Shown piece after piece: positions 48,062-61,136 of a stretch of DNA of 62,845 nt; positions within the stretch are counted from its first letter, which is position 1; each line of letters starts with the position of its first letter. The DNA comes from a virus (lineage: Duplodnaviria; Caudoviricetes): positions 1-62,845 of the IMG/VR virus record IMGVR_UViG_3300032236_000207. The stretch is one strand, 5' to 3'. Under the pieces are notes generated by a model. It saw only the letters and a list, made by a program, of their open reading frames with translations, did no database searches and was not told where the DNA came from. The position numbers were made by a program, and so were the translations under genes.

Positions 48062-48126
48062 TCAATCGTGCTCGAATCTAACAAATGTTATGCCATCCCC
48101 CTACTTTATTTTTGTTCAAAGAACGC

Positions 48127-48155
48127 TTGCATTTTGTGGTGCGATTAGATATAAT
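48127..48155 (+). promoter_or_regulatory. Early sigma70 promoter
   Basis: TTGCAT-17 nt-TATAAT. Confidence 0.7.
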
Positions 48156-48234
48156 GAGAACATGCCAAGCAACAATGCTTTGCATACCTAACATAAGTTA
48201 GGTTTCATGTTAGTTCTTTTTACAGAGGTTTATT

Positions 48235-48756
48235 ATGGATACAGTTCACGTCGTTAGTCCCGCTTTCCCTATGACTGCAGTGGCGGGTGCAGTTGCTAAC
48301 TTGACCGAGTCTCGCACTCAACTGGTTAAGGGTATCGGCAAAATCGGTGCTTTGATATCGGGATATTCCCTAGCGTTAGACCAAGCGTTTGACTTGGTAG
48401 ATAACCAAGGGCAAACCACTACCAAGTGGTTCGACTTGAAGGGTGCACTAAAGAAGGGCATCAAGGGTGAGCGTGCTAACTTTGTGGCAGATATGACACA
48501 AGCGGGTTATGGTAAGTCTACCATTGACGTCTACTGGCAACGAGTCAAGGAAGCCTCGGGTTATGTGACTGCGGGTAACCGAGTCAAGGCTGGCGCTACT
48601 GATGTTGACGCGAAGACACTCGCTGAATTGAAGACTATGGTAAACCGTATCTTCAAAGCCGAAGAGGAAGGCGTGACATGTGACGCTAGCGATATCAAGC
48701 ACTTGCTGATTGACGCTTACACAGCACTGGGTGGCAACGATAGCGACTTAGGCTAA
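48235..48756 (+). CDS. Early hypothetical protein
   Basis: 173 aa, GAGG RBS, own promoter and downstream hairpin. Confidence 0.75.
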   Translation: MDTVHVVSPAFPMTAVAGAVANLTESRTQLVKGIGKIGALISGYSLALDQAFDLVDNQGQTTTKWFDLKGALKKGIKGERANFVADMTQAGYGKSTIDVYWQRVKEASGYVTAGNRVKAGATDVDAKTLAELKTMVNRIFKAEEEGVTCDASDIKHLLIDAYTALGGNDSDLG

Positions 48757-48763
48757 TCAACGG

Positions 48764-48781
48764 ACGGGGGGAAACCCCCGT
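48764..48781 (+). terminator. GAAA-loop hairpin (terminator or processing site)
   Basis: ACGGGGG-GAAA-CCCCCGT; the T tract comes only after the adjacent palindrome. Confidence 0.45.
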
Positions 48782-48815
48782 TCTAACAAATGTTAGTTTT
48801 TAATCGGAGAATGTT

Positions 48816-49019
48816 ATGAAACCCTCTTACAAGCATGATTGTGAAAAGTGCAAATTTGTCGGCAAAATCTTTCGTGCTATGAATTTGGAAGGCACAAAGA
48901 AAAAAGCGACTGATGTTTATCAGTCTTGCGAAGTAGGTGGAAGTCGTTATATCCTCCGTTGTTCTAGTCAAGGCTCGGACTACATCACTACCAATAATTT
49001 GGAGATGTATATCTGCTAA
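48816..49019 (+). CDS. Small hypothetical protein
   Basis: GGAG RBS; HDCEKC motif. Confidence 0.65.
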   Translation: MKPSYKHDCEKCKFVGKIFRAMNLEGTKKKATDVYQSCEVGGSRYILRCSSQGSDYITTNNLEMYIC

Positions 49020-49038
49020 CCCCTACTGACTTATCCAC

Positions 49039-49062
49039 AGCCCGCCTTGAGCGGGCTTTTTT
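49039..49062 (+). terminator. Rho-independent terminator
   Basis: AGCCCGC-loop-GCGGGCT followed by TTTTT. Confidence 0.8.
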
Positions 49063-49140
49063 GCGTCTGATGACACCTAACAAATGTTAGCGTACCACTA
49101 AGTTATTTTTGTTCAAAGAAATTTAGCCCGAATTTTTAGA

Positions 49141-49238
49141 ATGCCAGTTCTCTGGGCGGCGTTAGGGTTGAAGTTTGAGATTGTCATCGCAGGGCATAGT
49201 TTGGCGACAATCTTTTAGGATGCCAGTTCTCTGGGCGG
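49141..49238 (+). repeat. 19-bp direct repeat ATGCCAGTTCTCTGGGCGG, two copies
   Basis: 49141-49159 and 49220-49238, both preceded by TTTTAGR. Confidence 0.85.
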
Positions 49239-49614
49239 GTTTAGGCTCGAACTAACAAATGTTATGCTTTGGGCAGGTAATGTTACGCAATGTTACGTGA
49301 CCCCTCCCCGCAAACCCGCATGAAACCTAGATTGTTATATGTTATATTGTTACACGACATATATAGCAGTCCACCAAAATGGATTTGGTCATCAAGGTCA
49401 GCAAGTGCAATTCATACCACTCAAACTCATTTTGGTGGGATATATATATATTCTCATAACATTATAACTTTATAACAATTAGTCATTTTTTGGCGTGGTT
49501 AAGCCATTTCCTTTGTTACACTTTATTTCCAAAACCCGTAACAATACCCTATTTTCATAACATCCCACTAACAAAGAAACATAACAATCCTCACTCATGC
49601 TCCGTCCTAAAAAT

Positions 49615-49643
49615 TTGACAAATCTGTAAAATTGTGGTATAAT
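49615..49643 (+). promoter_or_regulatory. Consensus early sigma70 promoter
   Basis: TTGACA-17 nt-TATAAT with extended TG. Confidence 0.88.
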
Positions 49644-49744
49644 AAGGTATGGAAATCAAAATAAAACCACAAAACCTAACAACTGTTAGGAAATGTAACA
49701 ACCCGAAGGAGAGCACATCATGCGCCCAAGCACGCCCTAAATAT

Positions 49745-49773
49745 TTGACAAATCTGTAAAATTGTGGTATAAT
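49745..49773 (+). promoter_or_regulatory. Consensus early sigma70 promoter (identical duplicate)
   Basis: Same 29-mer as 49615. Confidence 0.88.
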
Positions 49774-49859
49774 ATAACATGGGTTCGGGAGTTTTTCTCA
49801 GCCCATTCCAAATCTAACAAATGTTAGTTTTTCAACCCTTCAACCATACAAAGGTTTTT

Positions 49860-50057
49860 ATGTCCTCAGATTCACGCATCTACTTCATGCTTATGACAAT
49901 AATCGCAACTGCCTTTATTGTGTTCGGTTTTACTGGCGATGGTTACATCCACAACATTGCGCTAATCCTTGGTGGTCTCTACTTTGGTCACTTGATTACC
50001 GAAGCCCTCAACTATGACGAGTCAGACAAACTCGCAGACAGCCACTTGGAGGTATAA
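49860..50057 (+). CDS. Small two-TM membrane protein
   Basis: Two hydrophobic segments; stop lies in a palindrome (alternative start 49821). Confidence 0.6.
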   Translation: MSSDSRIYFMLMTIIATAFIVFGFTGDGYIHNIALILGGLYFGHLITEALNYDESDKLADSHLEV

Positions 50058-50060
50058 CAA

Positions 50061-50291
50061 ATGTTAGATAACGACTGGAAAGAATGTATCGACTGCGGTG
50101 ATGATGTTCACATCTCCCGTTGGTCTCTTGGCTACCGAGTGTGCCTCTTCTGCGGTGAAGACCGAGCCGTCGCAGAGCGTAGTTCATGGTGCATTGTGCA
50201 AGAGTACGGCAAGGGTAACTATCAGTATATTACCCCTACTAGCGCAACCACAACACTCAAGCAGACTAACCAAAAAGAACTGAGAGGGTAA
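50061..50291 (+). CDS. Small zinc-finger-like protein
   Basis: CIDCG..CLFCG; start lies in a palindrome. Confidence 0.7.
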   Translation: MLDNDWKECIDCGDDVHISRWSLGYRVCLFCGEDRAVAERSSWCIVQEYGKGNYQYITPTSATTTLKQTNQKELRG

Positions 50292-50295
50292 GGGT

Positions 50296-50457
50296 ATGAA
50301 AAAATTTAATGTGACTGTGGTGTTTTCTTACATCGACACCATCGAGGTGGAGGCTGAGAACAGAGAGGATGCCAAGGCTATGGCGTTTGACTTGTTCGAC
50401 GAGGAGCGCATGGTGCGCTGTGATGGTGAAGTGTTAGAAGTTGAAGAGGAGGCATAA
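50296..50457 (+). CDS. Small acidic protein (DpnD/PcfM-like pattern; not in ORF track)
   Basis: MKKFNVTV..IEVEAENREDA; stop lies in a palindrome. Confidence 0.55.
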   Translation: MKKFNVTVVFSYIDTIEVEAENREDAKAMAFDLFDEERMVRCDGEVLEVEEEA

Positions 50458-50460
50458 CAA

Positions 50461-50643
50461 ATGTTAGAAATTACATACACCGATATGTTCTTGTTCGCAT
50501 GGGCAAGCGTGATGACTGCCCTGTATTTCAAGGCACGACACGAGGAGCGCATGGTCAAAGTTGTGTTCATGCACCTTATAGAGAACCCCGAAGCCCGAGA
50601 GCAGATGATTGCCCAGTATGAAAAGACAAGGAGCGAAGCATGA
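50461..50643 (+). CDS. Small hypothetical protein
   Basis: GGAGG RBS; start lies in a palindrome. Confidence 0.6.
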   Translation: MLEITYTDMFLFAWASVMTALYFKARHEERMVKVVFMHLIENPEAREQMIAQYEKTRSEA

Positions 50644-50831
50644 ACGACAAAGATATCCAAGACGCAACCCGCCTAGTTCAGTATGCGGAGTTAGACATAG
50701 CGAAATACCTACAAAGCCCTGCCGACTTCATGGTTGTGGAGTGGCTTGAGGGTGTGCAACAAGCCCTGACCGACGCATTACAAATGTTAGGTTCGAACCC
50801 AATCCCTTTGTTGGAGAGCGATGATGAGTAA
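50640..50831 (+). CDS. Small hypothetical protein
   Basis: AAGGAG RBS, ATGA overlap. Confidence 0.6.
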   Translation: MNDKDIQDATRLVQYAELDIAKYLQSPADFMVVEWLEGVQQALTDALQMLGSNPIPLLESDDE

Positions 50832-51009
50832 AGACCGAAAGATAGCAGAGTTGGAGGCCACGATTAGGTCACTGCTCAAAGCCATCGACGGGTACAAGCG
50901 AGACCTCACATACGAAACAAACTGGAGGCTCATGTCCGCATGTATAAGTGCGAAGGAAGTTTTAAACAAACGAGAGGTAACAAATGTTAGAAATCGTAGT
51001 ACGAATTAA
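50821..51009 (+). CDS. Small hypothetical protein
   Basis: GGAG RBS. Confidence 0.5.
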   Translation: MMSKDRKIAELEATIRSLLKAIDGYKRDLTYETNWRLMSACISAKEVLNKREVTNVRNRSTN

Positions 51010-51175
51010 GAATGTATACGGAGTGGACAAGGTTTACCCAGTCTCTCCCAATGCTCACCTATTTGCCGACATTGCAGGCACAACCACGCTCAGACCATCC
51101 GACCTCAAGGCAATCCAAGAACTAGGGTATCGGGTAATCGTAGAGCAACCCGTATGGCAATCGGTGGAGGTATAA
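50984..51175 (+). CDS. Small hypothetical protein
   Basis: KNVYG..YPV..FADIAGTTTL; start and stop both lie in palindromes. Confidence 0.65.
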   Translation: MLEIVVRIKNVYGVDKVYPVSPNAHLFADIAGTTTLRPSDLKAIQELGYRVIVEQPVWQSVEV

Positions 51176-51177
51176 CA

Positions 51178-51669
51178 ATGTTAGATGACACAACCAACCT
51201 CACACCTGAGCAGAAACTAAAACTGCTCATTGCCAACCGACCTTGGGAAACCGAGCCCAACAGCGCAAAGTGGGAAGACAAACTCACGGGATACAAGTGC
51301 CGAATTATGCGACACGGCGACCTCGGTCACCTCTGTGGGTATGTGGGAATACCTAAGACGCACACGCTATACGGCAAGCACTACTCAGATGACGAGGTGG
51401 CAGACATTCGAATTCACGGTGGGCTGACGTTCTCAGAGGCAGATGAAGATGACAAAGACACATGGTGGTTCGGGTTCGACTGCTCACACATGGGAGACCT
51501 GAGCCCAAAACTACTCATGGTGCTCGTGGAGAAGGACAGATACAGGTTCGACCGAACCGAGCAATACCGCACATGGGACTATGTGGAGAACGAAGTCCGT
51601 GAGTTGGTGCGCCAACTGCGAGACGAGGATTCCCTAGCAAATCAAATACCAAACTTTAGGAGACCCTAA
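51178..51669 (+). CDS. Conserved phage hypothetical protein
   Basis: GHLCGYVG..HGGLTF..WFGFDCSH; start and stop both lie in palindromes. Confidence 0.75.
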   Translation: MLDDTTNLTPEQKLKLLIANRPWETEPNSAKWEDKLTGYKCRIMRHGDLGHLCGYVGIPKTHTLYGKHYSDDEVADIRIHGGLTFSEADEDDKDTWWFGFDCSHMGDLSPKLLMVLVEKDRYRFDRTEQYRTWDYVENEVRELVRQLRDEDSLANQIPNFRRP

Positions 51670-51672
51670 CAA

Positions 51673-51915
51673 ATGTTAGATAAAGAAGCACAGCAAGCCT
51701 TGGTTGCATTGATGCAGACCAAGCAGAACTTGGAAGACCAAGTATTGAAGTCAATGCGTAGCCCTGACCTGACAACCGAGCAACTCATAAAACTACGCAA
51801 GAAGTATCTAGGGTTCTTAGAGAAGTTGCAAGAGGTTGAGGATGAACTCCAAGCACACGAGCGGGGCACACCCGAGGAATGGATAGCCATGTGGAAGGGG
51901 CAGAAAGATGAGTGA
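51673..51915 (+). CDS. Coiled-coil hypothetical protein
   Basis: AGGAG RBS; start lies in a palindrome. Confidence 0.6.
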   Translation: MLDKEAQQALVALMQTKQNLEDQVLKSMRSPDLTTEQLIKLRKKYLGFLEKLQEVEDELQAHERGTPEEWIAMWKGQKDE

Positions 51916-52123
51916 AGAAGCAGAGAAGCAAGAGCCTGAGTCTGGATTTTTTAGTCGTGAAGCAATGAAAGCCCATAGCGATTTTCATCCACAACAACGC
52001 CCTTGGGTTGGGCTGACGGATGAGGAAATGCTTGAGTGCAATATGGATGGTGACATCATGATTGACCGAGAAACAGCCAAACGAAATGTCGAAGCCAAGT
52101 TGAAGGAGAAAAATTATGACTAG
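51908..52123 (+). CDS. Small hypothetical protein
   Basis: WVGLTDEE...EAKLKEKN pattern. Confidence 0.6.
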   Translation: MSEEAEKQEPESGFFSREAMKAHSDFHPQQRPWVGLTDEEMLECNMDGDIMIDRETAKRNVEAKLKEKNYD

Positions 52124-52271: not shown

Positions 52272-52299
52272 AACCTAACAAATGTTAGAAAGGTAAATT

Positions 52300-53319
52300 A
52301 TGGGATACGCAACAGTAATGAATGTGCCACGGGTAACAACCTACACCGAGGCAAAGAACCTACACGACAGCATCAAGCCGATTCGTGGGCGAGACCCCGA
52401 GGTGCGACCCTTGGGTAACCGACGCGATGCCGACTCGTATTGGGTACGCATGGATGGGGACGACGTAGTGTTCATGCTCTACAAATCCCCCGTGATTACA
52501 TACAAGCCTGACGGGGCGGTGGTACTCACACCTGATACATATAGCACAGTATCTACACACCAATTCTTTCACAGGGTTCTTGGGGTGGGGGCAAATGCGT
52601 CTAGACAGCACTCCGTAATCACGCTCGGGGACAAACGCTACACGATTCGTGGCAAGGACAAACTCACGCTCAGACAAGTGGATGGGAACTGGTCTTGCGT
52701 CGAGGGGGCGAAGGCGCAGTTCGCGTGGCATTTGGACAGGCGAGAAGCAACAAATGTTAGGTCTCGCTACAAAGAATTTGTCACCTACTTCAAAGGCATG
52801 GTGGCTTTACGCACCGAGGACTTCACGCACCACTACGGTAATACGCACTACAAGGGAATTGCCGTGTCTCTGAATGAGTTACAAAATGCGTTTGGTGTGG
52901 AGACTATCGAAAACGAGAACCCATTCTTGCACTCACGAAATGACCCTGATTCAATCATTGGCAACATGCGGTGGATACAAGACTTGCCACAACGCCATTA
53001 CAACTATGGCACGCAGAGAGCGGATGAGTATGGGGCGGGCATAGTGAATTTTCTAGACCTGATTAGGAGCGACCAACCTGAGGACACCAAGACCACGAAC
53101 TTCTACAAGGGTGCGTTGGCGGTGCTGATGAGCGGTGACCGCCTATATCTACGAGGACAAGACGATAACACCTACATCGTTAAGGCTACGCCGATAGTGA
53201 AAGCCTTGGACACCGTGTTACTCAAAGCCCATGCGAGTCAGGTATTGGTGCGCAAAGAGTTACCGATTGGTTCGGTGTCCAAAGGGGCATACGACAGGTG
53301 GTTACCTGAGAACACCTAA
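52300..53319 (+). CDS. Hypothetical protein
   Basis: 339 aa, flanked by palindromes on both sides. Confidence 0.75.
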   Translation: MGYATVMNVPRVTTYTEAKNLHDSIKPIRGRDPEVRPLGNRRDADSYWVRMDGDDVVFMLYKSPVITYKPDGAVVLTPDTYSTVSTHQFFHRVLGVGANASRQHSVITLGDKRYTIRGKDKLTLRQVDGNWSCVEGAKAQFAWHLDRREATNVRSRYKEFVTYFKGMVALRTEDFTHHYGNTHYKGIAVSLNELQNAFGVETIENENPFLHSRNDPDSIIGNMRWIQDLPQRHYNYGTQRADEYGAGIVNFLDLIRSDQPEDTKTTNFYKGALAVLMSGDRLYLRGQDDNTYIVKATPIVKALDTVLLKAHASQVLVRKELPIGSVSKGAYDRWLPENT

Positions 53320-53356
53320 CAAATGTTAGGTGTAGGAGATGAGTGTGCCTAAATAT

Positions 53357-53385
53357 TTGACAAATACCTTATTTTGTGGTATAAT
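53357..53385 (+). promoter_or_regulatory. Consensus early sigma70 promoter
   Basis: TTGACA-17 nt-TATAAT; shares CCTAAATATTTGACAAAT and TTGTGGTATAAT with 49745. Confidence 0.88.
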
Positions 53386-53467
53386 TAAATGGTAGGCAAA
53401 AAAGTATTTTGTGTTAGTTTTTTCAACCAAATCCTAACAACTGTTAGGTATATCAGAGGAGTTAGAT

Positions 53468-54532
53468 ATGTCAGAAGTTAATTTCGGTAAGACCATTACC
53501 TTGAAGCAAGCATCCAATTTGATTCGCACGAACCCCACAACTCGGTTCTTATTGCGAGGTGAACCCGGAATTGGAAAGTCTTCCCTGTTGGAGAGTATTG
53601 CTAACGCATTGGGTTATGACCACGCATACATTGACGTGCCTAACCTAGACCTTGGCGATATTGCGATGCCCGTGATTGACCACGAGACCAAGACAACTAG
53701 GTATTACCCTAATGCTCGGTTCAAATTGCATGAGAAGAAACCCATCGTCATCATGCTAGACGAGTATACGAAGGGCGCAGACCCAGTTAAGAACATGCTC
53801 CATCCCATGCTCGAGAAGGCGAACCCACGACTCGGTGACATCTCTTTGCATGAGCAGAACATTGTGTTCATGACGGGTAATCTATCGACAGACGGGGTGG
53901 GTGACTCACTCAAGGCGCACTCTATGAATCGTGTGGTATCTGTAACTATCCAAAAGCCTGATGCAGAACAGTGGATTGAATGGGCTATCGGCAAGAGTAT
54001 CGAGCCTGAGGTGATTGCTTGGGTGAATCGTTTCCCACAAGTCTTGGCAAGTTACACGGACGGTGGACAGGCGGATAACCCGTATATCTTTAATCCTAAG
54101 AAGCCTATGACTGCGTTCGTATCTCCACGCTCACTCGAGACGGCCTCTAACATTGTTAGGTCTCGCAAAGAGAATGATGCCGACTCAGTAATCGCGGCTT
54201 TGACTGGTGCTATTGGCGAGTCAGGTGCAAGAGATATGCAAGCGTATATCGAATTCTCAGACCAACTGCCAACATGGGAAGCGACCATCAAAGACCCTAA
54301 GAATACCAAGATACCTACAAGTGCAGGTGCTTGTGCGATTGTGGTGTTCGGTGCGATTGCCCGTGTGGAGAAGGACACCATTGATGCGTTCATGGAATAT
54401 CTCGAGCGATTCGATGCCGAGTGGCAAGCCGTGTTCGCTATCAACATAGCGAAGTCACAAGCCAAGCAGAGCATTGCGTTTAGTGCGAAAGCCTTTACTG
54501 CATGGGTTGCTAAGAACCAAGACTTACTCTAA
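53468..54532 (+). CDS. MoxR-like AAA+ ATPase
   Basis: GEPGIGKS Walker A, IMLDE Walker B, TGN sensor 1, SPRS sensor 2. Confidence 0.85.
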   Translation: MSEVNFGKTITLKQASNLIRTNPTTRFLLRGEPGIGKSSLLESIANALGYDHAYIDVPNLDLGDIAMPVIDHETKTTRYYPNARFKLHEKKPIVIMLDEYTKGADPVKNMLHPMLEKANPRLGDISLHEQNIVFMTGNLSTDGVGDSLKAHSMNRVVSVTIQKPDAEQWIEWAIGKSIEPEVIAWVNRFPQVLASYTDGGQADNPYIFNPKKPMTAFVSPRSLETASNIVRSRKENDADSVIAALTGAIGESGARDMQAYIEFSDQLPTWEATIKDPKNTKIPTSAGACAIVVFGAIARVEKDTIDAFMEYLERFDAEWQAVFAINIAKSQAKQSIAFSAKAFTAWVAKNQDLL

Positions 54533-54542
54533 GAATTCTTAG

Positions 54543-54758
54543 ATGCTAACTACATCACAGAGTAATGGCACTCGTGCCCACCTTGGGCACAGGTATTGGG
54601 TGCAATGGGTAACCGCCACCAACCGAGACAAGGAGATGGTGGTGCTTGGCTACTGCGTTCGTGATATGGACAAGTTCGACAAGAACATTGTGTTCGAGCA
54701 CGAGAGCAAGATTGTGTGCGACAAGATTGCAGGTTTACTTAACGAAGGAGAGAGGTAA
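54543..54758 (+). CDS. Small hypothetical protein
   Basis: 71 aa, bounded by palindromes. Confidence 0.5.
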   Translation: MLTTSQSNGTRAHLGHRYWVQWVTATNRDKEMVVLGYCVRDMDKFDKNIVFEHESKIVCDKIAGLLNEGER

Positions 54759-54761
54759 CAA

Positions 54762-55982
54762 ATGTTAGAAGAAAGACGTGTTCAGAAGTCGAAGATTAGT
54801 TTGATGCGTAACCCTAAGTTCGCATTGCTATCAGGTATCTTGATGGTTGGTCGTACTAAGGTAGTGGATAACTTACCTACTGCGTGCACCAATGGTAGAG
54901 ATGAATCGTATGGTCGCAAGTTCGTCAAAGAACTGCGTGACCAAGAGTTGAACTTTGTGGTGGCGCATGAGAACTATCACAAGATGTATCGACACTTGAC
55001 TACATGGCGCAAGTTGCACGAGATTGACCACAGGTTAGCGAACAGCGCATGTGACTATGTAATCAACATCCAGTTGAAAGACCTAGACCCTAACGAGACA
55101 CTCATAGCCATGCCCCGATACAAAGACGGCAAGGTGATGGGCTTAGTTGATGAGCGATTCCGTGGCATGAACGCCAAGGAGGTGTTCGACATACTAAGAG
55201 AGGAGAAAGAGGAAAGAGGTTCTGGCGGTGAGGGCGAGGGTGGTAGCGGTGCGGGTGATGGTGACCCTGAGTTCGATGACCACGACTGGGATGGTGCTCA
55301 GGAGATGACAGCCGAGGAGAAGAAAGACTTGGCACGAGAGATTGACCAAGCGATTCGTCAGGGCATCATGGCACAGCAGAAGATTGCGGGTAGCGGAGCA
55401 GGTGGACTAGACCGTGAGTTGCAAGGACTACTTGAGCCCAAGGTTAACTGGCGTGAGGTATTGCGTGAGTTCGTTAAGTCAACATGCAGTTCTAAAGATG
55501 CATCGTCATGGCGCAGAGTTAATCGTAGGTTCTTATCCACAGGTGTTTACATGCCGAGCCTTATCGGTGAGAAGGTAGGTCACTTGGTTATTGCTATCGA
55601 CACATCGGGTTCGATTGGCGGTGATGAGTTGGCAGACTTCTTATCTGAGGTTAAGGGTATCGCAGAAGAGGTAAACCCTGAGTGCGTGGACTTACTGTAT
55701 TGGGATAGCGAGGTAGCGGGGCACGAGACTTACTCGGGTTCTACTGCGTCAGATATTCCTAACTCTACCAAGCCCAAGGGTGGCGGTGGCACAAGCCCGT
55801 CTTGTGTATCAGCGTATCTGAAAGAGAAGAACATCCAGCCCGAGTGCGTGATTGTTCTAACCGACGGGTATGTTGGTGGTGATTGGGGTAGCGAGTGGAC
55901 TGCGCCCGTGATGTGGTGCATCGTGGGTGGGTATGACGGCGATGCCGACAACGGCAAGACTATTCACATCGACAGCAACTAA
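54762..55982 (+). CDS. HExxH metallopeptidase-like plus VWA domain protein (DUF2201-like)
   Basis: TACTNG, AHENYH, DTSGS MIDAS, GGGT, LTDG. Confidence 0.85.
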   Translation: MLEERRVQKSKISLMRNPKFALLSGILMVGRTKVVDNLPTACTNGRDESYGRKFVKELRDQELNFVVAHENYHKMYRHLTTWRKLHEIDHRLANSACDYVINIQLKDLDPNETLIAMPRYKDGKVMGLVDERFRGMNAKEVFDILREEKEERGSGGEGEGGSGAGDGDPEFDDHDWDGAQEMTAEEKKDLAREIDQAIRQGIMAQQKIAGSGAGGLDRELQGLLEPKVNWREVLREFVKSTCSSKDASSWRRVNRRFLSTGVYMPSLIGEKVGHLVIAIDTSGSIGGDELADFLSEVKGIAEEVNPECVDLLYWDSEVAGHETYSGSTASDIPNSTKPKGGGGTSPSCVSAYLKEKNIQPECVIVLTDGYVGGDWGSEWTAPVMWCIVGGYDGDADNGKTIHIDSN

Positions 55983-55985
55983 CAA

Positions 55986-56219
55986 ATGTTAGGAGTGAGT
56001 ATGGCAGTAATAGACCCAGTGGAATGGTTTCAGATACGACACCCCACGCAGTATTGGGGAGACCCTTTCACTCATGGGATTGTCGAGGACAAGGGGACAG
56101 GTGAGTGGGTAGTGGTGAAGAAAGAAATGCTTGGCGATTCACTGACAAAGATATCAGAGATAGCCCGAGCACCGACCCGTGAAGGGGCGATTGGATTTTT
56201 AAAACTTATAAGGGGATGA
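55986..56219 (+). CDS. Small hypothetical protein
   Basis: Start at 55986 (palindrome) or 56001 (AGGAG RBS). Confidence 0.55.
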   Translation: MLGVSMAVIDPVEWFQIRHPTQYWGDPFTHGIVEDKGTGEWVVVKKEMLGDSLTKISEIARAPTREGAIGFLKLIRG

Positions 56220-56343
56220 TGATGAGTTCAGATTTATTAGATGAGTACTGCATGCAAGAGTACGGGCACACCGATTGGGAAATGTCGTGGGATGAGGACG
56301 GCAACTTGATTGTGAAGTTTTATGAAAACCAAAGGGAGGAAGT

Positions 56344-57198
56344 ATGAGTATTAGTTCATCAGCGTTGTTAGTGGAGTTGAATATCAGCGTATGGCCTGCG
56401 TCTAAGTTAGACAGAGAAATAACGGACAAGGTCAATACAGATGCGTCAGCAGTCAGAGGTGCGAGTCAGACCAAGAAGAATCTATTTGCGGGGACTAGCC
56501 TACGCAAAGACATATCAGACTTCGCCGCGCGTGTTCGTCTGTATCACAACAAGCACACATTACCTTGGGCAGACAAGGGTGAGCGCATGTTGCCGACCAA
56601 GTTATTCATGGAATACAAGCAGACCATGAACGGGTTCGAGCAGACATTCAACATGATGTGCAACAACTTCTTTGTGGAGTATCCGCGTCTTGTCGCAGAA
56701 GCACCTACTAACCTAGGCACTATGTATAAGGCAGAGGACTATCCCGACCTAACAGATGTTAGGTTGAAGTTCGGTTTCAAGCGAACAGTAAAGCCCGTGC
56801 CTGAGGCGGGCGACTTCCGACTGGACATACCTGCGTATGACTTGGATGAGATGCGAGCCGAGTTCGAGAAGCAACACGAGACTAAGTTAGCCGAGGCTAT
56901 GCGTGAGCCGTGGGAGCGTCTGCATAAGATGTTAGTAGGAATGTCGGAGAAGTTGACTGATGTTGAGGGTGATGATTCCAAGAAGCGTTACCACGACACA
57001 CTTATCTCTAACCCCATAGAGTTGTGTGGACTGCTAACCAAACTGAATGTGACCAACGACCCCAAGTTGGAGGAAGCACGACGTCAGTTGGAGTTGACCA
57101 TGCTTGGCGCAGACATTGAGAGTATTAAAGAAGATGCACAGTCTCGCAGTGCACTCAAGTCCAAGGTAGATGCTATCTTGGGTAAGTTCGATTGGTAA
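56344..57198 (+). CDS. Conserved helical protein accompanying AAA/VWA modules (DUF3150-like, tentative)
   Basis: TLPW..G.R.LP, DYP, FPV-like KPVP motifs; GGAGG RBS. Confidence 0.6.
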   Translation: MSISSSALLVELNISVWPASKLDREITDKVNTDASAVRGASQTKKNLFAGTSLRKDISDFAARVRLYHNKHTLPWADKGERMLPTKLFMEYKQTMNGFEQTFNMMCNNFFVEYPRLVAEAPTNLGTMYKAEDYPDLTDVRLKFGFKRTVKPVPEAGDFRLDIPAYDLDEMRAEFEKQHETKLAEAMREPWERLHKMLVGMSEKLTDVEGDDSKKRYHDTLISNPIELCGLLTKLNVTNDPKLEEARRQLELTMLGADIESIKEDAQSRSALKSKVDAILGKFDW

Positions 57199-57224
57199 CT
57201 AAGAAATCTTAGAAAGGGAATGAT

Positions 57225-58091
57225 ATGAGTGAATCACAGGCAGTAAGTATGAATTTGTTTGCGTTGAGCAATGTTGAGTTGCACCCCGATGTATCCAAGA
57301 AATTGGGTAATGAGACGATAGGCGACCCGCCTAACGATATGTGCAGATTGGTAATGCACTTGGCTATGGCAAACCCATTGTGGCGGTTTGTCGTTACCGA
57401 TACTATGGGAGACCATAGACCCGTAGGGTTCGGTGTGATTGATAGTGGCGAGGTGATTGGCAAGATTGGTAGGCAGTATTACCGAGGGGACTACAAACTC
57501 TCGCTAACCAACGACCGCATTAGCAATGCTAGAGAACGCACATCCTCATACCGCACGTCAGATGTGGACAAGGCTATCCTCATGGCGAAGAAGATGTTCT
57601 TTCGTCTCAAGCCCAACGAGCGTATCGAGAAGGCGTATGAGCAAGCCCACAAGGTGATGACTAACCAACTCTACGATAAGCAGAGGGAGCATCGCTATGC
57701 CGAGCGGGAGACCGAGAGTCTTGCGGTTAAGTTCATCATGGGAACTGGCTTTCCTTTGTTCTTGGGGTATGTAAACGGCCTGCCTGAACATGAGAAGAAG
57801 CCCATACTAGCGAAGATGGAGCAGGCCAAGAAGTTCAAGCAAGACATGATGACCATTGAAGCAATCAAGGATAGGTTCGGTGGTGAACACACAGCCCTAA
57901 TCATCAAAGATGAGGGTAAATACATGGTGAAGATTGGACAAGATGTTCAGATTTACGATGATAATACGCTCCCCGAATCCATGCGGGGTAAGTTGGGTAT
58001 GTTGAAGTTGGTTGAAGCCGAGCACTTCATATCTAGCGTGGGGTGTCGTATCAATGATGAGATATTCGTAGTATTAACAGAGGAGACCTAA
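57225..58091 (+). CDS. Hypothetical protein
   Basis: 288 aa; stop lies in a palindrome. Confidence 0.75.
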   Translation: MSESQAVSMNLFALSNVELHPDVSKKLGNETIGDPPNDMCRLVMHLAMANPLWRFVVTDTMGDHRPVGFGVIDSGEVIGKIGRQYYRGDYKLSLTNDRISNARERTSSYRTSDVDKAILMAKKMFFRLKPNERIEKAYEQAHKVMTNQLYDKQREHRYAERETESLAVKFIMGTGFPLFLGYVNGLPEHEKKPILAKMEQAKKFKQDMMTIEAIKDRFGGEHTALIIKDEGKYMVKIGQDVQIYDDNTLPESMRGKLGMLKLVEAEHFISSVGCRINDEIFVVLTEET

Positions 58092-58094
58092 CAA

Positions 58095-58295
58095 ATGTTA
58101 GAAGTAAAACTAGACAACCATCCGACCACAAGAATGTTTCCACGCACATTAGAAGAAGCGTATCCCAAAGATTACGTCAACAATTTCTTTGAGGGCCCGT
58201 TTTACAGTGCTCCACATATCAGCGAATACTCAGTCTTGCTTGCATTGATAGCAGTGTTCAGTATGTTGGGCTATGCAATGTGGAGGTATTTCTGA
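58095..58295 (+). CDS. Small membrane protein
   Basis: TTRMFPRTLEEA motif plus C-terminal TM helix; start lies in a palindrome. Confidence 0.65.
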   Translation: MLEVKLDNHPTTRMFPRTLEEAYPKDYVNNFFEGPFYSAPHISEYSVLLALIAVFSMLGYAMWRYF

Positions 58296-58395
58296 TGTTA
58301 GAAACAATCGCATGGATAGTATTTCTAATGGGGCTAGGCGCAGTCGTAGTGGTTGCCGTAGGACTAGCAATAGTTTATATAAGTAGGGAGGACAT

Positions 58396-58755
58396 ATGAA
58401 TGACTTTTTTTGGGGCGCAGGTATAAGCGCAGTAATTTGGACATTGATTAGTTTTGTTTGGGGGTTCGTGGAGGAACATAAGAAAGACAAGGCTAACAAA
58501 GTTAGGGAGAAGTTGGCGTACCACGGCACTGCACTGGTATCCCCACAAATATCCCCCAGTTTTGGCAAGGTAGAGCCACAAGTGCGGATTGGGATGATGA
58601 ACGCAATGAACGGCAGACTGCTAGAGGTTGCATCTACTACGCTAAACAGACACGGGGATAGAGACTATGTAGTCGAGCACTACATCATTGATGAGACCAA
58701 GCCATTGTCGGAGGAGATAGCGGTGGTGATGCTTATGAAGGGGATGAGTAAATGA
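58396..58755 (+). CDS. Membrane-anchored hypothetical protein
   Basis: GGAGG RBS, N-terminal TM helix. Confidence 0.65.
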   Translation: MNDFFWGAGISAVIWTLISFVWGFVEEHKKDKANKVREKLAYHGTALVSPQISPSFGKVEPQVRIGMMNAMNGRLLEVASTTLNRHGDRDYVVEHYIIDETKPLSEEIAVVMLMKGMSK

Positions 58756-58931
58756 AAGAGCACGAAATGATTTCTGCGATTACTCTGCGTGACTTCTTTG
58801 CGTCTCAGGCTATGCAGGGTGCTTTAGCAGGTATCGCTACTAGAGCGGAGGTTATTCGCTACTCAGAGTTAGCGGGACTAGCGTACGAAGTAGCGGACGC
58901 AATGATGGAAGCGAGAGATGAGGAAGCGTAG
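58752..58931 (+). CDS. Small conserved phage protein (not in ORF track)
   Basis: TLRDFFASQAMQG..AYEVADAMMEAR pattern. Confidence 0.65.
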   Translation: MKEHEMISAITLRDFFASQAMQGALAGIATRAEVIRYSELAGLAYEVADAMMEARDEEA

Positions 58932-59391
58932 CAAATACAGACCCAAGGGAGTTCTGCCCGACCCGATGACTTGGTTGTTGGCGGGTATGAAACCTTTCAA
59001 AGAAGTGCCTTTTAGCGTAGACCTACGTATCAAGAACCACGGTGCTATGGATGCGCTACGCAGAGGCATTGCTACCAAGGATGACATGGATGTTCTGATT
59101 GGTGCGTTCAACATGACCGAGGCATGTATCCGACTGCGACCTGAGTTGGGTGCGGACTGGGCAGATGAAATCAAGGCGGGGCAAGATGCGCTCTATGCAG
59201 TTTCTAAGCGAGGTGCAAATAGTATGCGGTTCATTCTCAAGGCGAGTGAACTTGTGGCTATGAACCTAGTCATGGAACTACATGATGTGCAACTAGACCA
59301 AACAACAGTAAGCGACTTGGAGAAGGCTATGGATATTGTGAAAGAAGAACATAGATTGAAGAAGATGCGACCAGTCAAGGAGAAGGTATGA
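58918..59391 (+). CDS. Hypothetical protein
   Basis: MRKRSKYRPK start, 157 aa. Confidence 0.7.
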   Translation: MRKRSKYRPKGVLPDPMTWLLAGMKPFKEVPFSVDLRIKNHGAMDALRRGIATKDDMDVLIGAFNMTEACIRLRPELGADWADEIKAGQDALYAVSKRGANSMRFILKASELVAMNLVMELHDVQLDQTTVSDLEKAMDIVKEEHRLKKMRPVKEKV

Positions 59392-59651
59392 CACAAGATG
59401 AAATCATTGAGATGGCTAGAGAGTCTGGGTTAGAAACACAAGATGGGTTTTCTGAATCTGTTTTTTACTTTGCCAAACTGGTAGCAGACAAAAGAGTTGA
59501 AGGCATGGTAGTAATGACCCCTGACGAATTCAAAAGCGTATGGGATAAAGCGCAAGCAGAAGAGCGTGAGGCGTGTGCGCTTATTGGCGATGGCTATCAC
59601 GATGAAGAAGCAAACTGTGGTGATTTAATCAGAGCAAGGGGACAAGCATGA
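59388..59651 (+). CDS. Small hypothetical protein (paralog A)
   Basis: MTQDEIIEMAR..FAKLVA..ERE..IRARG. Confidence 0.7.
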   Translation: MTQDEIIEMARESGLETQDGFSESVFYFAKLVADKRVEGMVVMTPDEFKSVWDKAQAEEREACALIGDGYHDEEANCGDLIRARGQA

Positions 59652-59923
59652 CACAAGATGAAATCATTGAGATGGCTAGACAGGCTGGTTTTGATGTCAA
59701 AGAATGGGGTGATGAAACATTGGTTCGTACCGTACACAGCAAGGGTTACTTTGTTGTCATCAATCAAAAACTTGAAGCCTTTGCCAAACTGGTAGCAGAG
59801 AAAGAGCGTGAGGAATGTGCCAAGATTATTTATGACTCTTGGGAATCAACAACAGCGGGTGAAGGCATACCCGAAGATTGGCTTTTGACTTTGGCAGAAC
59901 TAATCAAAGCAAGGGGAAACTAA
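59648..59923 (+). CDS. Small hypothetical protein (paralog B)
   Basis: First 33 nt identical to paralog A. Confidence 0.7.
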   Translation: MTQDEIIEMARQAGFDVKEWGDETLVRTVHSKGYFVVINQKLEAFAKLVAEKEREECAKIIYDSWESTTAGEGIPEDWLLTLAELIKARGN

Positions 59924-60222
59924 TGCAGTCAGTTCATTCAACAGGCTACATGGTGCGTAGCATATACAAAGGAACATATGAAAAAACAGGAAGAGATGAT
60001 GGAACAGGATACGTCTTGTATCGAACAAGAACCCTTGCACAACAACACATCGACAAGTATTGCGAAGGCAAAGCGTTCGTCGTCAAAGTCAGGGTTGCGA
60101 TTACGCCGACTGAGTCAAGCCGAAATGAACGCGCATTGGCCATTCACAAGGCTAGACCCAAAACTATTTCCGAAAAACTTAAAAACAACTTCTTTCCCTA
60201 CTGAAGAAGAGGAAGCACTACT

Positions 60223-60423
60223 ATGACAACAGGAATTGAAGAACTTAAACCAATAACAAAACGCAAGGGGCGAGGCCTTGGTAAGAAACCTGCGCTTTTT
60301 TGCACGAGTTTGCGTCTACCAAAGGAGGTGATGGATTACTTCAACACTAACTTTCCGTATACAAAGCAAGCCAAGATGAGAGAAATTCTTACTGAATACA
60401 TTAACCAACAAACAAGGAGTTAA
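60223..60423 (+). CDS. Ribbon-helix-helix-like DNA-binding protein
   Basis: RGLGKKP basic arm then TSLRLPKEVMDYF..MREIL strand-helix-helix pattern. Confidence 0.55.
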   Translation: MTTGIEELKPITKRKGRGLGKKPALFCTSLRLPKEVMDYFNTNFPYTKQAKMREILTEYINQQTRS

Positions 60424-60424
60424 C

Positions 60425-60949
60425 ATGGTTACTAAAAAGAAACGCACAAGCAGAACTAAGACCGCACAGATTCGTGCTTACATAGCAGAGAATCCCGAAG
60501 CGACACCGAAGACCATTTCGGGGCTATACGGCATCCCGCTCAAGTCCGTGTATCAGATTACATATCAGATACGCAAAGAGAAGAAGCCCGTCATCGTCAC
60601 TGCAACACAGGCAGCCATCGCTAATAGGCTAGGGGTATCAACGCAGGAGTATGTCAAGAGAGTTTACGAATTGACGAGAGGGCGTGACCGACGCCACCCC
60701 GTTACAGGTAAGCGTCTCATGCAAGGCGCAGATATTGTGGCAACACATCACACCGACATGGTCAACCATCCTCCGCACTACAAGCAAGGGGGCATCGAGA
60801 CTATCGACTTCATCGAGGCGAAAGAGTTGGACTACAACCTTGGCAATGTTGTGAAATACATAACACGAGCCGACCACAAGGGCAACAAGTTGGAAGACTT
60901 GAAGAAGGCACAGTGGTATCTCAACCGAGCCATTGAAAAGTTAAACTGA
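60425..60949 (+). CDS. DUF3310/SaV-like protein with N-terminal HTH-like region
   Basis: DMVNHPPHY..IETIDFI..GNVVKYITRA..EDLKKAQWYL. Confidence 0.8.
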   Translation: MVTKKKRTSRTKTAQIRAYIAENPEATPKTISGLYGIPLKSVYQITYQIRKEKKPVIVTATQAAIANRLGVSTQEYVKRVYELTRGRDRRHPVTGKRLMQGADIVATHHTDMVNHPPHYKQGGIETIDFIEAKELDYNLGNVVKYITRADHKGNKLEDLKKAQWYLNRAIEKLN

Positions 60950-60985
60950 TACTAGGGGGTAACATAATTGGAGGATGACCTAGCC

Positions 60986-61086
60986 GATAGATGTGACGGT
61001 GTCTTTCTCAAGCAGAGTCCCCCTTAGTTGATTTGCTCTGCTTGAACCTTAAGCGTGACGGGGGGCACGCAATCTATCAGCCCCCC
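60986..61086 (+). ncRNA. Candidate pseudoknotted structured RNA
   Basis: GAUAGAU/AUCUAUC, UCAAGCAGAG/CUCUGCUUGA and GCGUG/CACGC stems; G6 loop complementary to downstream C6. Confidence 0.5.
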
Positions 61087-61113
61087 AACCTAACATTTGT
61101 TAGGGTAAGTCCT

Positions 61114-61136
61114 AGCCACCTTCGGGTGGCTTTTTT
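61114..61136 (+). terminator. Rho-independent terminator closing the early region
   Basis: AGCCACC-TTCG-GGTGGCT followed by TTTTT. Confidence 0.88.

Follow-up and report, generated by a model that had tools for sequence, protein, structure and literature searches.

The window is the whole 62.8-kb record of an uncultured freshwater phage, a whole virus record that is 98% complete. The genes between 48 and 61 kb are probably expressed early, as judged from promoter strength and gene content. Among them lie about 26 copies, variants included, of a 14-base palindrome, CTAACA-NN-TGTTAG, all within 48078-61103. The left part of this region, from promoter P0 to promoter P2, holds the following features (sites and the non-coding region are given without a strand).

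48078..48091: site CTAACAAATGTTAT, one mismatch, about 50 bp upstream of the -35 element of P0
48128..48153, plus strand: P0, likely promoter of the 173-aa gene (TTGCAT-17-TATAAT, our own reading of the sequence)
48188..48201: site CTAACATAAGTTAG, one mismatch, at about +28 from P0, 5′ of the SD of gene 48235
48235..48756, plus strand: gene of a 173-aa helical protein, its own small transcription unit, with sites on both sides
48783..48796: exact site, immediately 3′ of a G+C hairpin and 5′ of the SD of gene 48816
49039..49057, plus strand: intrinsic terminator (terminator/promoter scan)
49077..49090: exact site that follows this terminator and precedes the next promoter
49091..49610: origin-like non-coding region, six TGTTA at left, AT-rich centre near 49440, six TAACA at right
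49252..49265: site, one mismatch, bordering the half-site array on its left
49615..49643, plus strand: P1, sigma-70 promoter (12/12 with TG)
49676..49689: exact site, centre AC, a 16-bp palindrome with its flanks, at about +26 from P1, with an extra TAACA half-site next to it
49745..49773, plus strand: P2, sigma-70 promoter duplicating P1 (12/12 with TG)
49814..49827: exact site at about +34 from P2

P0 is missing from the promoter scan list because its -35 element matches at only 3/6 positions. The features to the right of P2 are as follows.

50054..50067: junction site, one mismatch; TAA stops ORF 49821-50057, ATG starts 50061, SD GGAGG 5′ of the motif
50454..50467: junction site, one mismatch; stop of 50296-50457, start of 50461
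50777..50790: weak copy of uncertain status, two mismatches, within ORF 50640-50831
50977..50990: site, one mismatch; ATG starts 50984
51172..51184: 13-nt junction form ATAACA-A-TGTTAG; stop of 50984-51175, with an ATG at 51178 that probably starts the MazG-like gene
51666..51679: exact junction site; TAA stops 51154-51669, ATG starts 51673
52275..52288: exact site ahead of the SD of gene 52300; its ATG begins a mini-ORF of 4 codons
52747..52760: intragenic copy GCAACAAATGTTAG, two mismatches, in gene 52300-53319
53316..53329: exact site; TAA stops 52300-53319, 28 bp upstream of the P3 -35 element
53357..53385, plus strand: P3, sigma-70 promoter (12/12 with TG)
53434..53447: exact site, centre AC, at about +42 from P3, ahead of the SD of the gene for the AAA ATPase
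54147..54159: 13-nt form CTAACA-T-TGTTAG inside the ATPase gene
54529..54542: symmetric variant CTAAGAATTCTTAG where the ATPase gene stops, just ahead of gene 54543
54755..54768: junction site, one mismatch; stop of 54543-54758, start of DUF2201 gene 54762
55979..55992: exact junction site; TAA stops 54762-55982, ATG shares the frame of the following gene
56749..56762: exact intragenic site coding LTDVR, in gene 56344-57198
57199..57212: symmetric variant CTAAGAAATCTTAG, 5′ of gene 57225
58088..58101: exact junction site; stop of 57225-58091, start of 58095
58493..58505: intragenic 13-nt form CTAAC-AAA-GTTAG (pattern search)
61090..61103: exact site, centre TT, between a G+C hairpin and the closing terminator
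61114..61131, plus strand: terminator closing the early operon (terminator/promoter scan)
61147..61174, plus strand: P4, promoter of the site-free middle (replication) operon (11/12)

The preliminary description had reported a palindrome array confined to this region, and this was borne out. The exact motif, CTAACANNTGTTAG, occurs 12 times against 0.01 expected, all inside 48783-61103, and none of 100 shuffles reached that number. With up to two mismatches, 24 copies were found against 3.27 expected, 23 of them inside 48078-61103. The single outside copy, at 28539, has two mismatches and is compatible with chance. Beyond it, the motif scan of the window gave none in the middle operon (61147 via the record end to 6785), which P4 precedes, and none among the late genes, the minus-strand virion genes included. 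The 24 coordinates originally listed resolved into 12 exact copies, seven with one mismatch (48078, 48188, 49252, 50054, 50454, 50977 and 54755), two with two mismatches (50777 and 52747) and three (51172, 54147 and 58493) that are 13-nt forms rather than 14-mers; two junction copies of the symmetric type CTAAGA..TCTTAG, 54529 and 57199, had been overlooked.

Copies are restricted to transcription units with consensus sigma-70 promoters, where they lie 26-42 nt past start sites and at gene junctions. Downstream of P1, P2 and P3 alike, a site stands at about +26 to +42, and the same layout was found in the relatives G1, G3, G4 and G5 at about +40 to +50. (G1-G5, G17, L210, L212 and L283 label the relatives and related loci compared with the window.) Each of five relatives carries 11-18 copies in a single cluster of about 13 kb, the reversed-pattern control giving 0, and the DNA identity of the genes that they share with the window is only 63-83%. 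A set of 26 sequences (502 kb) contains 153 exact 14-mers and 89 with one mismatch, again with a control of 0.

Two non-junction sites, one 5′ of the first promoter and one in the interval from the terminator to the promoter that follows it, are kept in the window and in the relatives examined; the second, 49077, which is probably untranscribed because of its position, is kept in G1, G3 (as 13-mers), G4 and G5. Relatives have the standard motif at the places of the symmetric variants 54529 and 57199, G4 and G5 at that of 54529. The 52747 variant was also found in G17, and the 56749 site exists only in some lineages, others being site-free and coding IEEVR or IGEVK there. The centre was correctly described as usually AA (AA in 8 of the 12 exact copies, AC in 2, GA in 1, TT in 1), a predominance that largely follows from the use of the motif ATG as start codon. 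The last copy, 61090, is the only exact one with TT and had been called inverted; that orientation holds for the window, G3 and G5, but AA stands there in G1 and G4. At this terminal site and the two conserved non-junction places the centre flips freely among AA, TT and AT, the equivalent of 48078 having AT, TT or AT in G1, G4 and G5.

The spacer, a feature beyond the original list, may be 1, 2 or 3 nt. Lineages with 13-nt forms only have 16-17 copies in each of four loci, 13- and 14-nt forms are mixed in some genomes, and a few copies have 15 nt, such as the G3 counterpart of the 48783 site with its 3-nt spacer. A rigid dimer on duplex DNA would seldom tolerate such loose spacing, which comes naturally to the loop of a hairpin.

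Codon use was another addition: at many junctions the motif TAA is the stop of the upstream gene and the motif ATG the start of the next, in the same frame and 3 nt apart. ATG is present in 204 of 280 oriented sites, 98 of these 204 having an SD-like word within 14 nt upstream. One could think of an element of the early polycistronic mRNA, a reading that we hold to be unlikely. A hairpin would have the UAA of gene N in its 5′ arm and the AUG and UUA of gene N+1 in its loop and 3′ arm. Either a phage protein would read it (translational repression like that of T4 RegA or at the MS2 coat operator, cleavage like that of RegB or Cas6) or the hairpin alone would couple translation of each gene to termination of the one before it. 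Folding energies range from -3.9 kcal/mol for a 5-bp stem to -7.3 kcal/mol for a 6-bp stem, the hairpin making up 60-97% of the ensemble, and its loop length is free at 3-5 nt. Pairing is kept by symmetric double variants, namely CTAAGA..TCTTAG (two in the window, three in L210), ATAACA..TGTTAT (five in G5) and CTAACT..AGTTAG. The sense-strand loop is AAAT in 157 and ATTT in 24 of the 280 sites, so a strand preference exists.

Nevertheless, the sequence itself is conserved and not pairing alone, with a single stem sequence across the clade. The outer pair is often broken (of the 89 one-mismatch copies, 29 have A1 and 16 have T14; in most G5 sites A1 faces G14), and the L212 lineage has CTAAG..GTTAG and CTAAC..CTTAG hybrids that cannot pair at positions 5 and 10. 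Copies are conserved 5′ of the first promoter and 3′ of a terminator, some are intragenic or far from start codons, lone half-sites in direct arrays can form no hairpin, and an Rfam search gave no family match. The non-pairing hybrids, the often unpaired outer positions, the flipping centre and the conservation in probably untranscribed DNA argue for a site read in duplex DNA.

A site at gene borders could also serve as a recombination linker or mobile junction, either through microhomology or because a phage nuclease or recombinase acts on it (HNH at 434-712, VRR-NUC at 61565-61870), with early cassettes swapped between phages much like the PeSL cassettes of T4-type phages. Blocks of homology between the window and its relatives often end at sites (right ends 54525, 54748, 55993, 57198 and 58102; left ends 50048, 53434 and 54750), and L210, a close relative, has two replaced segments that each start from the right edge of a site. 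Each lineage is uniform in its sites (13-nt, 14-nt or G type), which homogenisation of the copies by copying would produce. Block ends are, however, equally frequent at site-free gene borders (50287, 51911, 56344, 60223 and 60425), and the most variable stretch, 58.1-60.2 kb, has a single weak intragenic copy. Sites also stand in fixed regulatory places and within conserved genes, half-site arrays are left unexplained, and PeSL carries a promoter, which the motif does not. We regard this explanation as improbable.

The half-site arrays, likewise new to the description, occupy the origin-like non-coding region 49091..49610, which includes a twin CCAGTTCTCTGGGCGG element. The genome's lowest G+C and its cumulative GC skew minimum fall near it, and its layout recurs in G1, G3, G4 and G5. 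Direct TGTTA-TGTTA repeats show peaks at spacings of 7 bp (11) and 8 bp (11), where two control pentamers gave 0-2; inverted units number 216 at 7 bp, 30 at 6 bp and 5 at 8 bp. The ribbon-helix-helix protein omega of pSM19035 binds units in the same arrangement, with a dimer on each 7-bp unit, whether the units are direct or inverted (PMC9499535). Omega-type heptad operators and stoperators are comparable known systems. Mycobacteriophage stoperators and start-associated sequences, two of the analogies first put forward, serve well for comparison, but the motif differs from both in palindromy and site position.

Iteron-like arrays around an AT-rich centre at such a minimum would also suit a phage replication initiator, the DUF927 primase-helicase, acting in replication; an 82-aa helix-turn-helix gene overlaps the start of its gene. 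A host regulator is the related proposal, of Crp/Fnr type or another global regulator, whose 5-4-5 palindrome was borrowed. Sites of the Crp/Fnr family typically have a 5-N4-5 layout, the PrfA box of Listeria matches the motif at 12/14 positions, and the 12-mer core of the motif occurs in three papers on PrfA. Taken together, we give host-protein or initiator sites little credence: the sites at about +26 to +42 of early promoters and the absence elsewhere are not explained by an initiator, and four cultured phages with related terminases and other early/replication modules gave one match to the 12-nt core in four genomes, so the motif goes with this phage module and not with the habitat.

The motif is thus, with somewhat better than even probability on the sequence evidence, a duplex-DNA operator of two inverted 7-bp units, at which a phage protein would bind, block host RNA polymerase and shut off the early genes. 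The direct TGTTA arrays with 7-8-bp spacing, flanking the AT-rich origin-like centre, also argue for it. A region-wide array for a symmetric shut-off protein, as first proposed, remains the best-supported reading, in which protein binding, repression and the identity of the binder are what we infer.

Two candidate binders had been named, and a third, minor one is the 173-aa protein (48235), whose family occurs in 22 sequences, including G2 and one 13-mer lineage; a fold search with its structure model gave no match.

60223..60423, plus strand: gene of a 66-aa ribbon-helix-helix-like protein, penultimate in the early operon (model and weak fold matches)
3698..3946, plus strand: gene of the 82-aa helix-turn-helix protein, in the middle operon, directly preceding the DUF927 primase-helicase gene and overlapping its start

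The 66-aa protein fits best and is our first candidate. Its model has an extended strand followed by two helices, and its best structural matches, though weak (Z 2.1-3.4), are mostly ribbon-helix-helix proteins (among them PutA, omega, ParG, NikR and Arc); Foldseek and a PDB profile search gave no match. It has 242 relatives in viral contigs, the best 80 of the 242 being 79-98% identical, is present in all sequences spanning the whole early region, and the motif core was found in 76 of 80 loci holding its gene. The 82-aa protein, our second candidate, has weak Pfam matches and PDB profile matches to XRE/Cro-type proteins (E 0.003-0.03), and its gene was found in 5/5 further records searched. 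Both are conserved in all relatives covering their position, and these weak matches agree with their proposed folds; the DNA-reading residues of neither track the site variants among the relatives compared. Strand residues of the 66-aa protein are identical in the window (C type), L210 (G type) and L283 (13-mers), G2 has H, N, R for C, S, R yet the same motif, and near-identical proteins occur with 13-only, mixed and 14-only genomes.

In the operator reading, about 26 operators with the core TAACA/TGTTA are concentrated in the transcription units that would be the first to be read by the host's sigma-70 RNA polymerase. A sequence-specific protein of the phage would bind just past the early promoters and at gene junctions; since no site overlaps a promoter, repression would have to act as a roadblock to the elongating polymerase. 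Because the genes are tightly packed, the operator would have been fitted into junctions as TAA (stop), CAA, ATG (start), TTA, G, and this junction, TAA-CAA-ATG-TTA-G, would be why many early proteins begin Met-Leu. The same protein may use the 5-bp unit in direct arrays 7-8 bp apart around the AT-rich centre at 49.1-49.6 kb as a master control or origin-like region. Early genes would be shut off in this way, and the middle (replication) and late (virion) operons, having no sites, would remain on. If the binder is, as seems most likely, the 66-aa ribbon-helix-helix protein, the position of its gene at the distal end of the early operon would make the circuit one of delayed negative feedback.

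The window is the entire IMG/VR virus record of 62,845 bp, with a completeness estimated at 98%, and its genes fall into two blocks of opposite direction.
7019-47675, minus strand: virion and packaging genes (terminase, portal, major head, ejection proteins and a 2126-aa DarB-like protein)
About 48.0 kb to the record end, continuing at 1-6785, plus strand: genes including those for an SNF2 helicase, a Gam-like protein, an 82-aa helix-turn-helix protein and a 949-aa DUF927 primase-helicase
From the promoters and the gene content we infer early, middle (replication) and late classes of transcription. No tRNA genes were found in the window, and no integrase in PHROGs and Pfam scans of it. Rfam at gathering thresholds gave no family over the whole window, and only two sub-threshold, chance-like matches in 47.6-50 kb. 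The nearest cultured phages by terminase, with a protein identity of just 48-58%, are lake phage DSL-LC04, phage 023Pt_psg01, the Pelagibacter phages HTVC027P and HTVC023P and Planktothrix/Synechococcus phages. No near-identical cultured phage was found by a megablast of the region, which returned only a 39-nt chance match.

Some features of this genome are recorded here in their own right. The 2126-aa virion-region protein (7019-13399, minus strand) has a DarB-like C-terminal part and an LPD39 domain, and its 1200 N-terminal residues gave no match. The genes for an AAA ATPase and a DUF2201 protein (metallopeptidase plus VWA-like) form a pair at 53468-55982; the latter protein gave 756 phage-record tblastn matches, many of them in Escherichia, Vibrio and Pseudomonas phages, where the label is often wrong ('HNH endonuclease'). 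A 76-aa early protein (50061-50291) without Pfam match, conserved in the relatives G1 and G2, has a CxxC-N17-CxxC pattern that resembles a zinc finger of the TraR/DksA type, for which host RNA polymerase would be the target. G-rich words like GGGGTGGGGGG are repeated at 47800-48070, where the terminase-side and the early genes diverge, and G1, G2 and G4 have a similar G-run 15-30 nt 5′ of their first motif copy. These words could serve as signals for packaging or for late promoters.

The motif is a perfect 6+2+6 palindrome, CTAACA-NN-TGTTAG. Its form CTAACANNTGTTAG occurs in 12 exact copies in the window against 0.01 expected, and with up to two mismatches 24 matches were obtained against 3.27 expected. 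The motif is thus enriched over background, and the confinement to the early region claimed in the preliminary description is borne out, 23 of the 24 matches lying within 48078-61103. The count of about 24 copies of a 14-mer needed some revision. The array is real and comprises about 26 copies, all in 48-61 kb with zero in the middle operon and the late genes, but those at 51172, 54147 and 58493 are 13-nt forms (1-nt spacer or 3-nt loop). Two junction copies, at 54529 and 57199, had been overlooked; they have the symmetric variant CTAAGA..TCTTAG where relatives have the standard motif. It had also been stated that the motif was not recognised as described, and a literature search with the 14-nt motif strings gave no match either. 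In the portions of the literature available, the 12-nt core turns up in three papers on Listeria PrfA and one on Streptococcus Aca11, none about these phages, and literature searches for the nearest cultured phages brought up no such motif. The copies are negative in an intrinsic-terminator test, having A+T-rich stems and T runs after 48783 and 49814 only; in a terminator scan three copies were listed, as weak matches only.

A consensus scan located three perfect sigma-70 promoters with extended -10 and a fourth matching 11/12, to which one read by eye can be added.
48128-48153: P0, TTGCAT-17-TATAAT, read by eye from the sequence
49615: P1, perfect, extended -10
49745: P2, perfect, extended -10
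53357: P3, perfect, extended -10
61147: P4, 11/12, driving the replication genes
49039 and 61114: terminators
A motif copy is found at about +26 to +42 of each of P0-P3 (48188, 49676, 49814 and 53434, respectively) and none downstream of P4. No copy overlaps a promoter; the sites lie at these downstream positions or 28-50 bp upstream of a -35 element. P1 and P2 result from a duplication at 49600-49790, in which a perfect promoter and about 35 nt of context recur 130 bp apart, and the interval between them holds one copy of the motif as well as a mini-ORF of 6 codons (ATGCGCCCAAGCACGCCCTAA) that has a strong Shine-Dalgarno sequence.

Many other copies are at gene junctions. The TAA of the motif is the stop codon of the upstream ORF at eight copies (50054, 50454, 51172, 51666, 53316, 54755, 55979 and 58088), and the ATG three bases past it is the next start codon at 7-9 copies, with a GGAG-type Shine-Dalgarno sequence directly 5′ of the motif. 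The proteins started in this manner begin with Met-Leu-(Glu/Asp/Gly/Val). Six copies (48188, 48783, 52275, 53434, 54529 and 57199) precede an ordinary Shine-Dalgarno-ATG start by 10-35 nt, and four (52747, 54147, 56749 and 58493) are intragenic. Transcription is unlikely at 48078, upstream of P0, at 49077, between the terminator and P1, and at 49252.

The exact 14-mer was found at a minimum of 170 loci in viral contigs, many of which have 3-10 copies. Presence in related phages was confirmed in five records examined whole, which contain 11, 11, 13, 18 and 14 copies (at most one mismatch) in one cluster of about 13 kb each, while a reversed-pattern control in the same five gave 0. The genes common to the window and these relatives are just 63-83% identical in DNA. 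Among 26 sequences that total 502 kb after removal of duplicates, the counts of exact and one-mismatch copies were 153 and 89 for the 14-mer, 20 and 15 for the 13-mer and 2 and 1 for the 15-mer; these sequences were selected for holding the motif, and the counts thus describe the family and not the frequency among phages. The reversed control over this set gave none at up to one mismatch. TAAC-N4-GTTA is almost invariant and the variation is mostly at positions 1/14 and 6/9. Four cultured phages, which have related terminases and other early and replication modules, showed one match to the 12-nt core in the four genomes.

The form of the site differs between lineages. In 13-nt-only lineages the motif is CTAACA-(A/T)-TGTTAG, and its TAA and ATG are out of frame with each other. 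L217, L219, L222 and L283 each have 16-17 copies of it, and L220 is also among the loci with 13-nt-only lineages. In the close relatives L210, L212, L214 and L216 (83-96% DNA identity), positions 5 and 10 are altered at homologous sites and the 66-aa ribbon-helix-helix-like protein is almost unchanged. The homologous sites are of the G type (CTAAG..CTTAG) in L210 and are hybrids, with one half altered, in the L212 lineage. A scan for the G-type 14-mer gave at least 118 loci, nearly all with single copies, and by BLAST none among the matches listed was of this clade. The intragenic site 56749 codes LTDVR, and lineages coding IEEVR or IGEVK there are without the site. Motif copies are gained and lost, and lineages have drifted apart in the length of the site (13 or 14 nt) and in whether C or G stands at positions 5 and 10.

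Such variation bears on whether the site is read in DNA or in RNA. A phage protein could recognise a sequence-specific 5-bp hairpin stem in the early mRNA instead of duplex DNA; one gene would have its stop codon in the 5′ arm, the next its start codon in the loop and 3′ arm, and the loop would be free at 3-5 nt. We regard this as rather improbable, also when the related possibility of a translational-coupling hairpin is counted with it. It would mean that the polycistronic early message is cut, or that its translation is shut off one gene at a time, hence a RegA/RegB-like or Cas6-like layer in stop-start junctions across a freshwater phage clade. In favour of the hairpin are the loose spacing and the symmetric variants. 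The spacer is 1, 2 or 3 nt, some lineages being 13-nt only (each of the four loci with 16-17 copies) and some genomes mixed, and symmetric double variants stay paired: CTAAGA..TCTTAG has two copies in the window and three in L210, ATAACA..TGTTAT has five in G5, and CTAACT..AGTTAG has one. The RNA fold is reasonably stable (-3.9 to -7.3 kcal/mol), and when 80 loci are oriented by their 66-aa gene, the loop on the sense strand reads AAAT at 157 of 280 sites and ATTT at 24 of 280.

Nevertheless, a single stem sequence is found throughout the clade and therefore sequence, not pairing, is conserved. The outer pair is often broken, by A1 in 29 and by T14 in 16 of the 89 one-mismatch copies, and so it is at most G5 sites. 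In L212, L214 and L216, three of three homologous sites are hybrids (CTAAG..GTTAG or CTAAC..CTTAG), which cannot pair at positions 5/10 and retain the rest of the motif. Moreover, the relatives examined retain the copies upstream of the first promoter and past the terminator, with AA, AT, TT or one base at the centre. At the terminal site the centre is TT in the window, G3 and G5 but AA in G1 and G4; since it differs among relatives, the 'inversion' once ascribed to the last copy is without meaning. The preference for an AA centre within the operon goes with ATG use: ATG is present in 204 of the 280 oriented sites, with a Shine-Dalgarno-like word just 5′ in 98 of the 204.

Half-sites were also found singly. 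No part of the genome is lower in G+C than the non-coding stretch 49091-49610, and the cumulative GC skew reaches its minimum nearby. The stretch contains six TGTTA in its left part and six TAACA in its right part, with an AT-rich run between them near 49440. The arrangement of these arrays recurs in G1, G3, G4 and G5, as in TGTTAtaTGTTAtaaTGTTAt ... TAACAttaTAACAttaTAACAtta of G3. Such a layout is like iterons round an unwinding element, and by this analogy 49091-49610 may be a replication origin. An element of about 25 nt, gCCAGTTCTCTGGGCGG-N-GTTAGG, occurs twice in the left part of this region, at 49134-49165 and 49222-49250, about 90 bp apart; the pair is also present in G1, G3, G4 and G5, the second copy always directly 5′ of a motif copy. 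In the 26-sequence set, direct TGTTA repeats peak at spacings of 7 and 8 bp with 11 each (22 together), versus 0-2 in two control pentamers (1-3 over 7-8 bp), and inverted units number 216 at 7 bp, 30 at 6 bp and 5 at 8 bp. As single units cannot form hairpins, the simplest common explanation is that the unit is recognised in duplex DNA by a protein. We consider it fairly probable, with due reserve, that the motif is a duplex-DNA operator of a phage repressor. That it serves a host regulator, or replication only, has little probability in our estimate.

Three phage proteins, found in every sequence that covers their positions, were considered as the binder.
60223..60423, plus strand: 66-aa ribbon-helix-helix-like protein, penultimate gene of the early operon
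3698..3946, plus strand: 82-aa helix-turn-helix protein, overlapping the start of the primase-helicase gene
48235..48756, plus strand: 173-aa protein, first gene, with two sites bracketing its own promoter
The 66-aa protein is put forward tentatively. At least 242 viral-contig relatives of it exist; the best 80 of the 242 are 79-98% identical, a conservation far above that of the neighbour genes, and the motif core is present in 76 of these 80 loci. Its model shows an extended strand segment followed by two helices (pLDDT 67.6). Foldseek and a PDB profile search gave no match, and an exhaustive structural comparison gave weak ones (Z 2.1-3.4), with mostly ribbon-helix-helix proteins in the top rows (PutA, omega, ParG, NikR, ParD, AmrZ and Arc); PDB 1irq and 2bnw, both omega, are among the matches. 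The strand residues are identical across genomes with C-type, G-type and 13-nt sites and are different in G2 despite its standard motif, and near-identical 66-aa proteins accompany 13-only, mixed and 14-only genomes. No covariation of site variants was found with the ribbon-helix-helix or the helix-turn-helix protein, in what is a weak test, the G-type lineages being available only on contigs of up to 9.2 kb. In a scan of 185,579 species genomes only five loci with distant homologues of the 66-aa protein were found, none of the five with the motif and none a prophage copy. Beside one of them, in a Gammaproteobacteria MAG (L294), two pairs of a 15-nt palindrome, GCGACC-NNN-GGTCGC, lie at about 10209-10264 and 16767-16834, which could be own sites of that homologue or host REP-like repeats.

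The 82-aa protein, an unlikely binder in our view, has weak matches to XRE/Cro-type helix-turn-helix proteins (E 0.003-0.03), and its recognition helix, (S/T)R-x-T(V/I)YNW, is retained in all lineages seen. Direct units just 7-8 bp apart fit it less well. To another phage protein we assign the same low probability, and to a host protein a lower one still. The 173-aa protein was rejected as it has no recognisable fold: its model (pLDDT 76.6) found no Foldseek match at E ≤0.001, and its sequence no PDB match.

Phage phiC31 of Streptomyces, which is temperate, has conserved inverted repeats (CIRs) that adjoin phage-specific early promoters. Each CIR is reportedly a 17-bp palindromic repressor operator (Ingham et al. 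1994, Nucleic Acids Res), with many highly conserved intergenic copies in the early region. The motif resembles them in its palindromic form, its many copies and its early location and differs by the stop and start codons inside, which CIRs are not known to have. The promoter-early stem-loops (PeSLs) of T4-type phages are repeated hairpin elements bordering small early genes as gene-shuffling seams; they are longer and include an early promoter. The proposed PeSL analogy was dropped, as the 14-mer contains no promoter, none lies in or beside most copies, and seams do not appear enriched at the sites over other gene borders. A role as recombination linker likewise has little probability, as homology blocks appear to end at gene borders alike with or without sites.

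In logic, the closest known system is the stoperators of cluster A mycobacteriophages, which serve L5 gp71-type immunity repressors. More than 20 copies are distributed over promoter regions and the short gaps between genes in transcribed DNA, initiation and elongation are proposed to be stopped, and the orientation correlates with transcription (PMC9283540). The sites are 13-nt, asymmetric, bound by a monomer, spread genome-wide in temperate phages and orientation-dependent in function. The suggested analogy stands insofar as 26 copies of one short site are found in transcribed DNA and short intergenic spaces, the TAA being the upstream stop in eight. It does not extend to asymmetry or genome-wide spread: the motif is a palindrome in a single 13-kb region, and its centre flips freely where it is not a start codon. 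Unlike the temperate stoperator phages, this phage has no integrase or prophage copy in the searches made.

In site architecture, omega of plasmid pSM19035 is closest. Its heptad operators (parS) consist of adjoining 7-bp units in direct or inverted order, each of which is bound by one dimer; affinity is high only where at least two units are present, and several promoters are repressed (PMC9499535). The omega arrays, of 7-10 units, overlap promoters, and ParA is a partner of omega. The motif units are likewise 7-bp, direct or inverted and contiguous, but mostly two inverted units form a site, located downstream of promoters and in junctions with spacings of 6-8 bp, and there is no ParA in the window. 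The start-associated sequences (SAS/ESAS) of cluster K mycobacteriophages are short, conserved, asymmetric repeats at gene starts in the non-structural genome half, 3-7 bp 5′ of the start codon, containing the Shine-Dalgarno core and sometimes the upstream stop (PMC3203893). This comparison, also made earlier, holds in that both elements are linked with gene starts and confined to non-structural genes, and fails in the asymmetry and the Shine-Dalgarno core, the motif being palindromic with the ATG inside and the Shine-Dalgarno sequence outside, on the 5′ side.

On the operator reading, host polymerase would initiate at the consensus promoters P0-P3 and a phage protein would build up, in the case of the 66-aa protein only once transcription has reached the far end of the 12-kb operon. 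The two-unit operators just past each promoter and at the gene junctions would then be occupied and elongation blocked, while the site-free P4 and late operons would keep running. Binding of the protein at the sites and the repression are steps that we infer. The sites would be in junctions because a 14-bp palindrome is cheapest there in a tightly packed operon, and TAA-CAA-ATG-TTA-G would let the operator serve as stop and start too.

If this is true, a large uncultured clade of freshwater podophages would run its host-takeover genes by a single small protein and a single 14-bp word built into stop and start codons; the linked 66-aa gene is present in at least 242 viral contigs. This would be a compact dual coding, regulatory as well as translational, and a stoperator-like silencing in an apparently lytic phage that uses host RNA polymerase. 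The half-site common to the origin-like region hints at a coupling of replication and early shut-off. The 66-aa or the 82-aa protein with the 14-mer makes a clean, testable pair, and the lineage-specific 13/14-nt and C/G forms would be a natural experiment on the drift between an operator and its reader.
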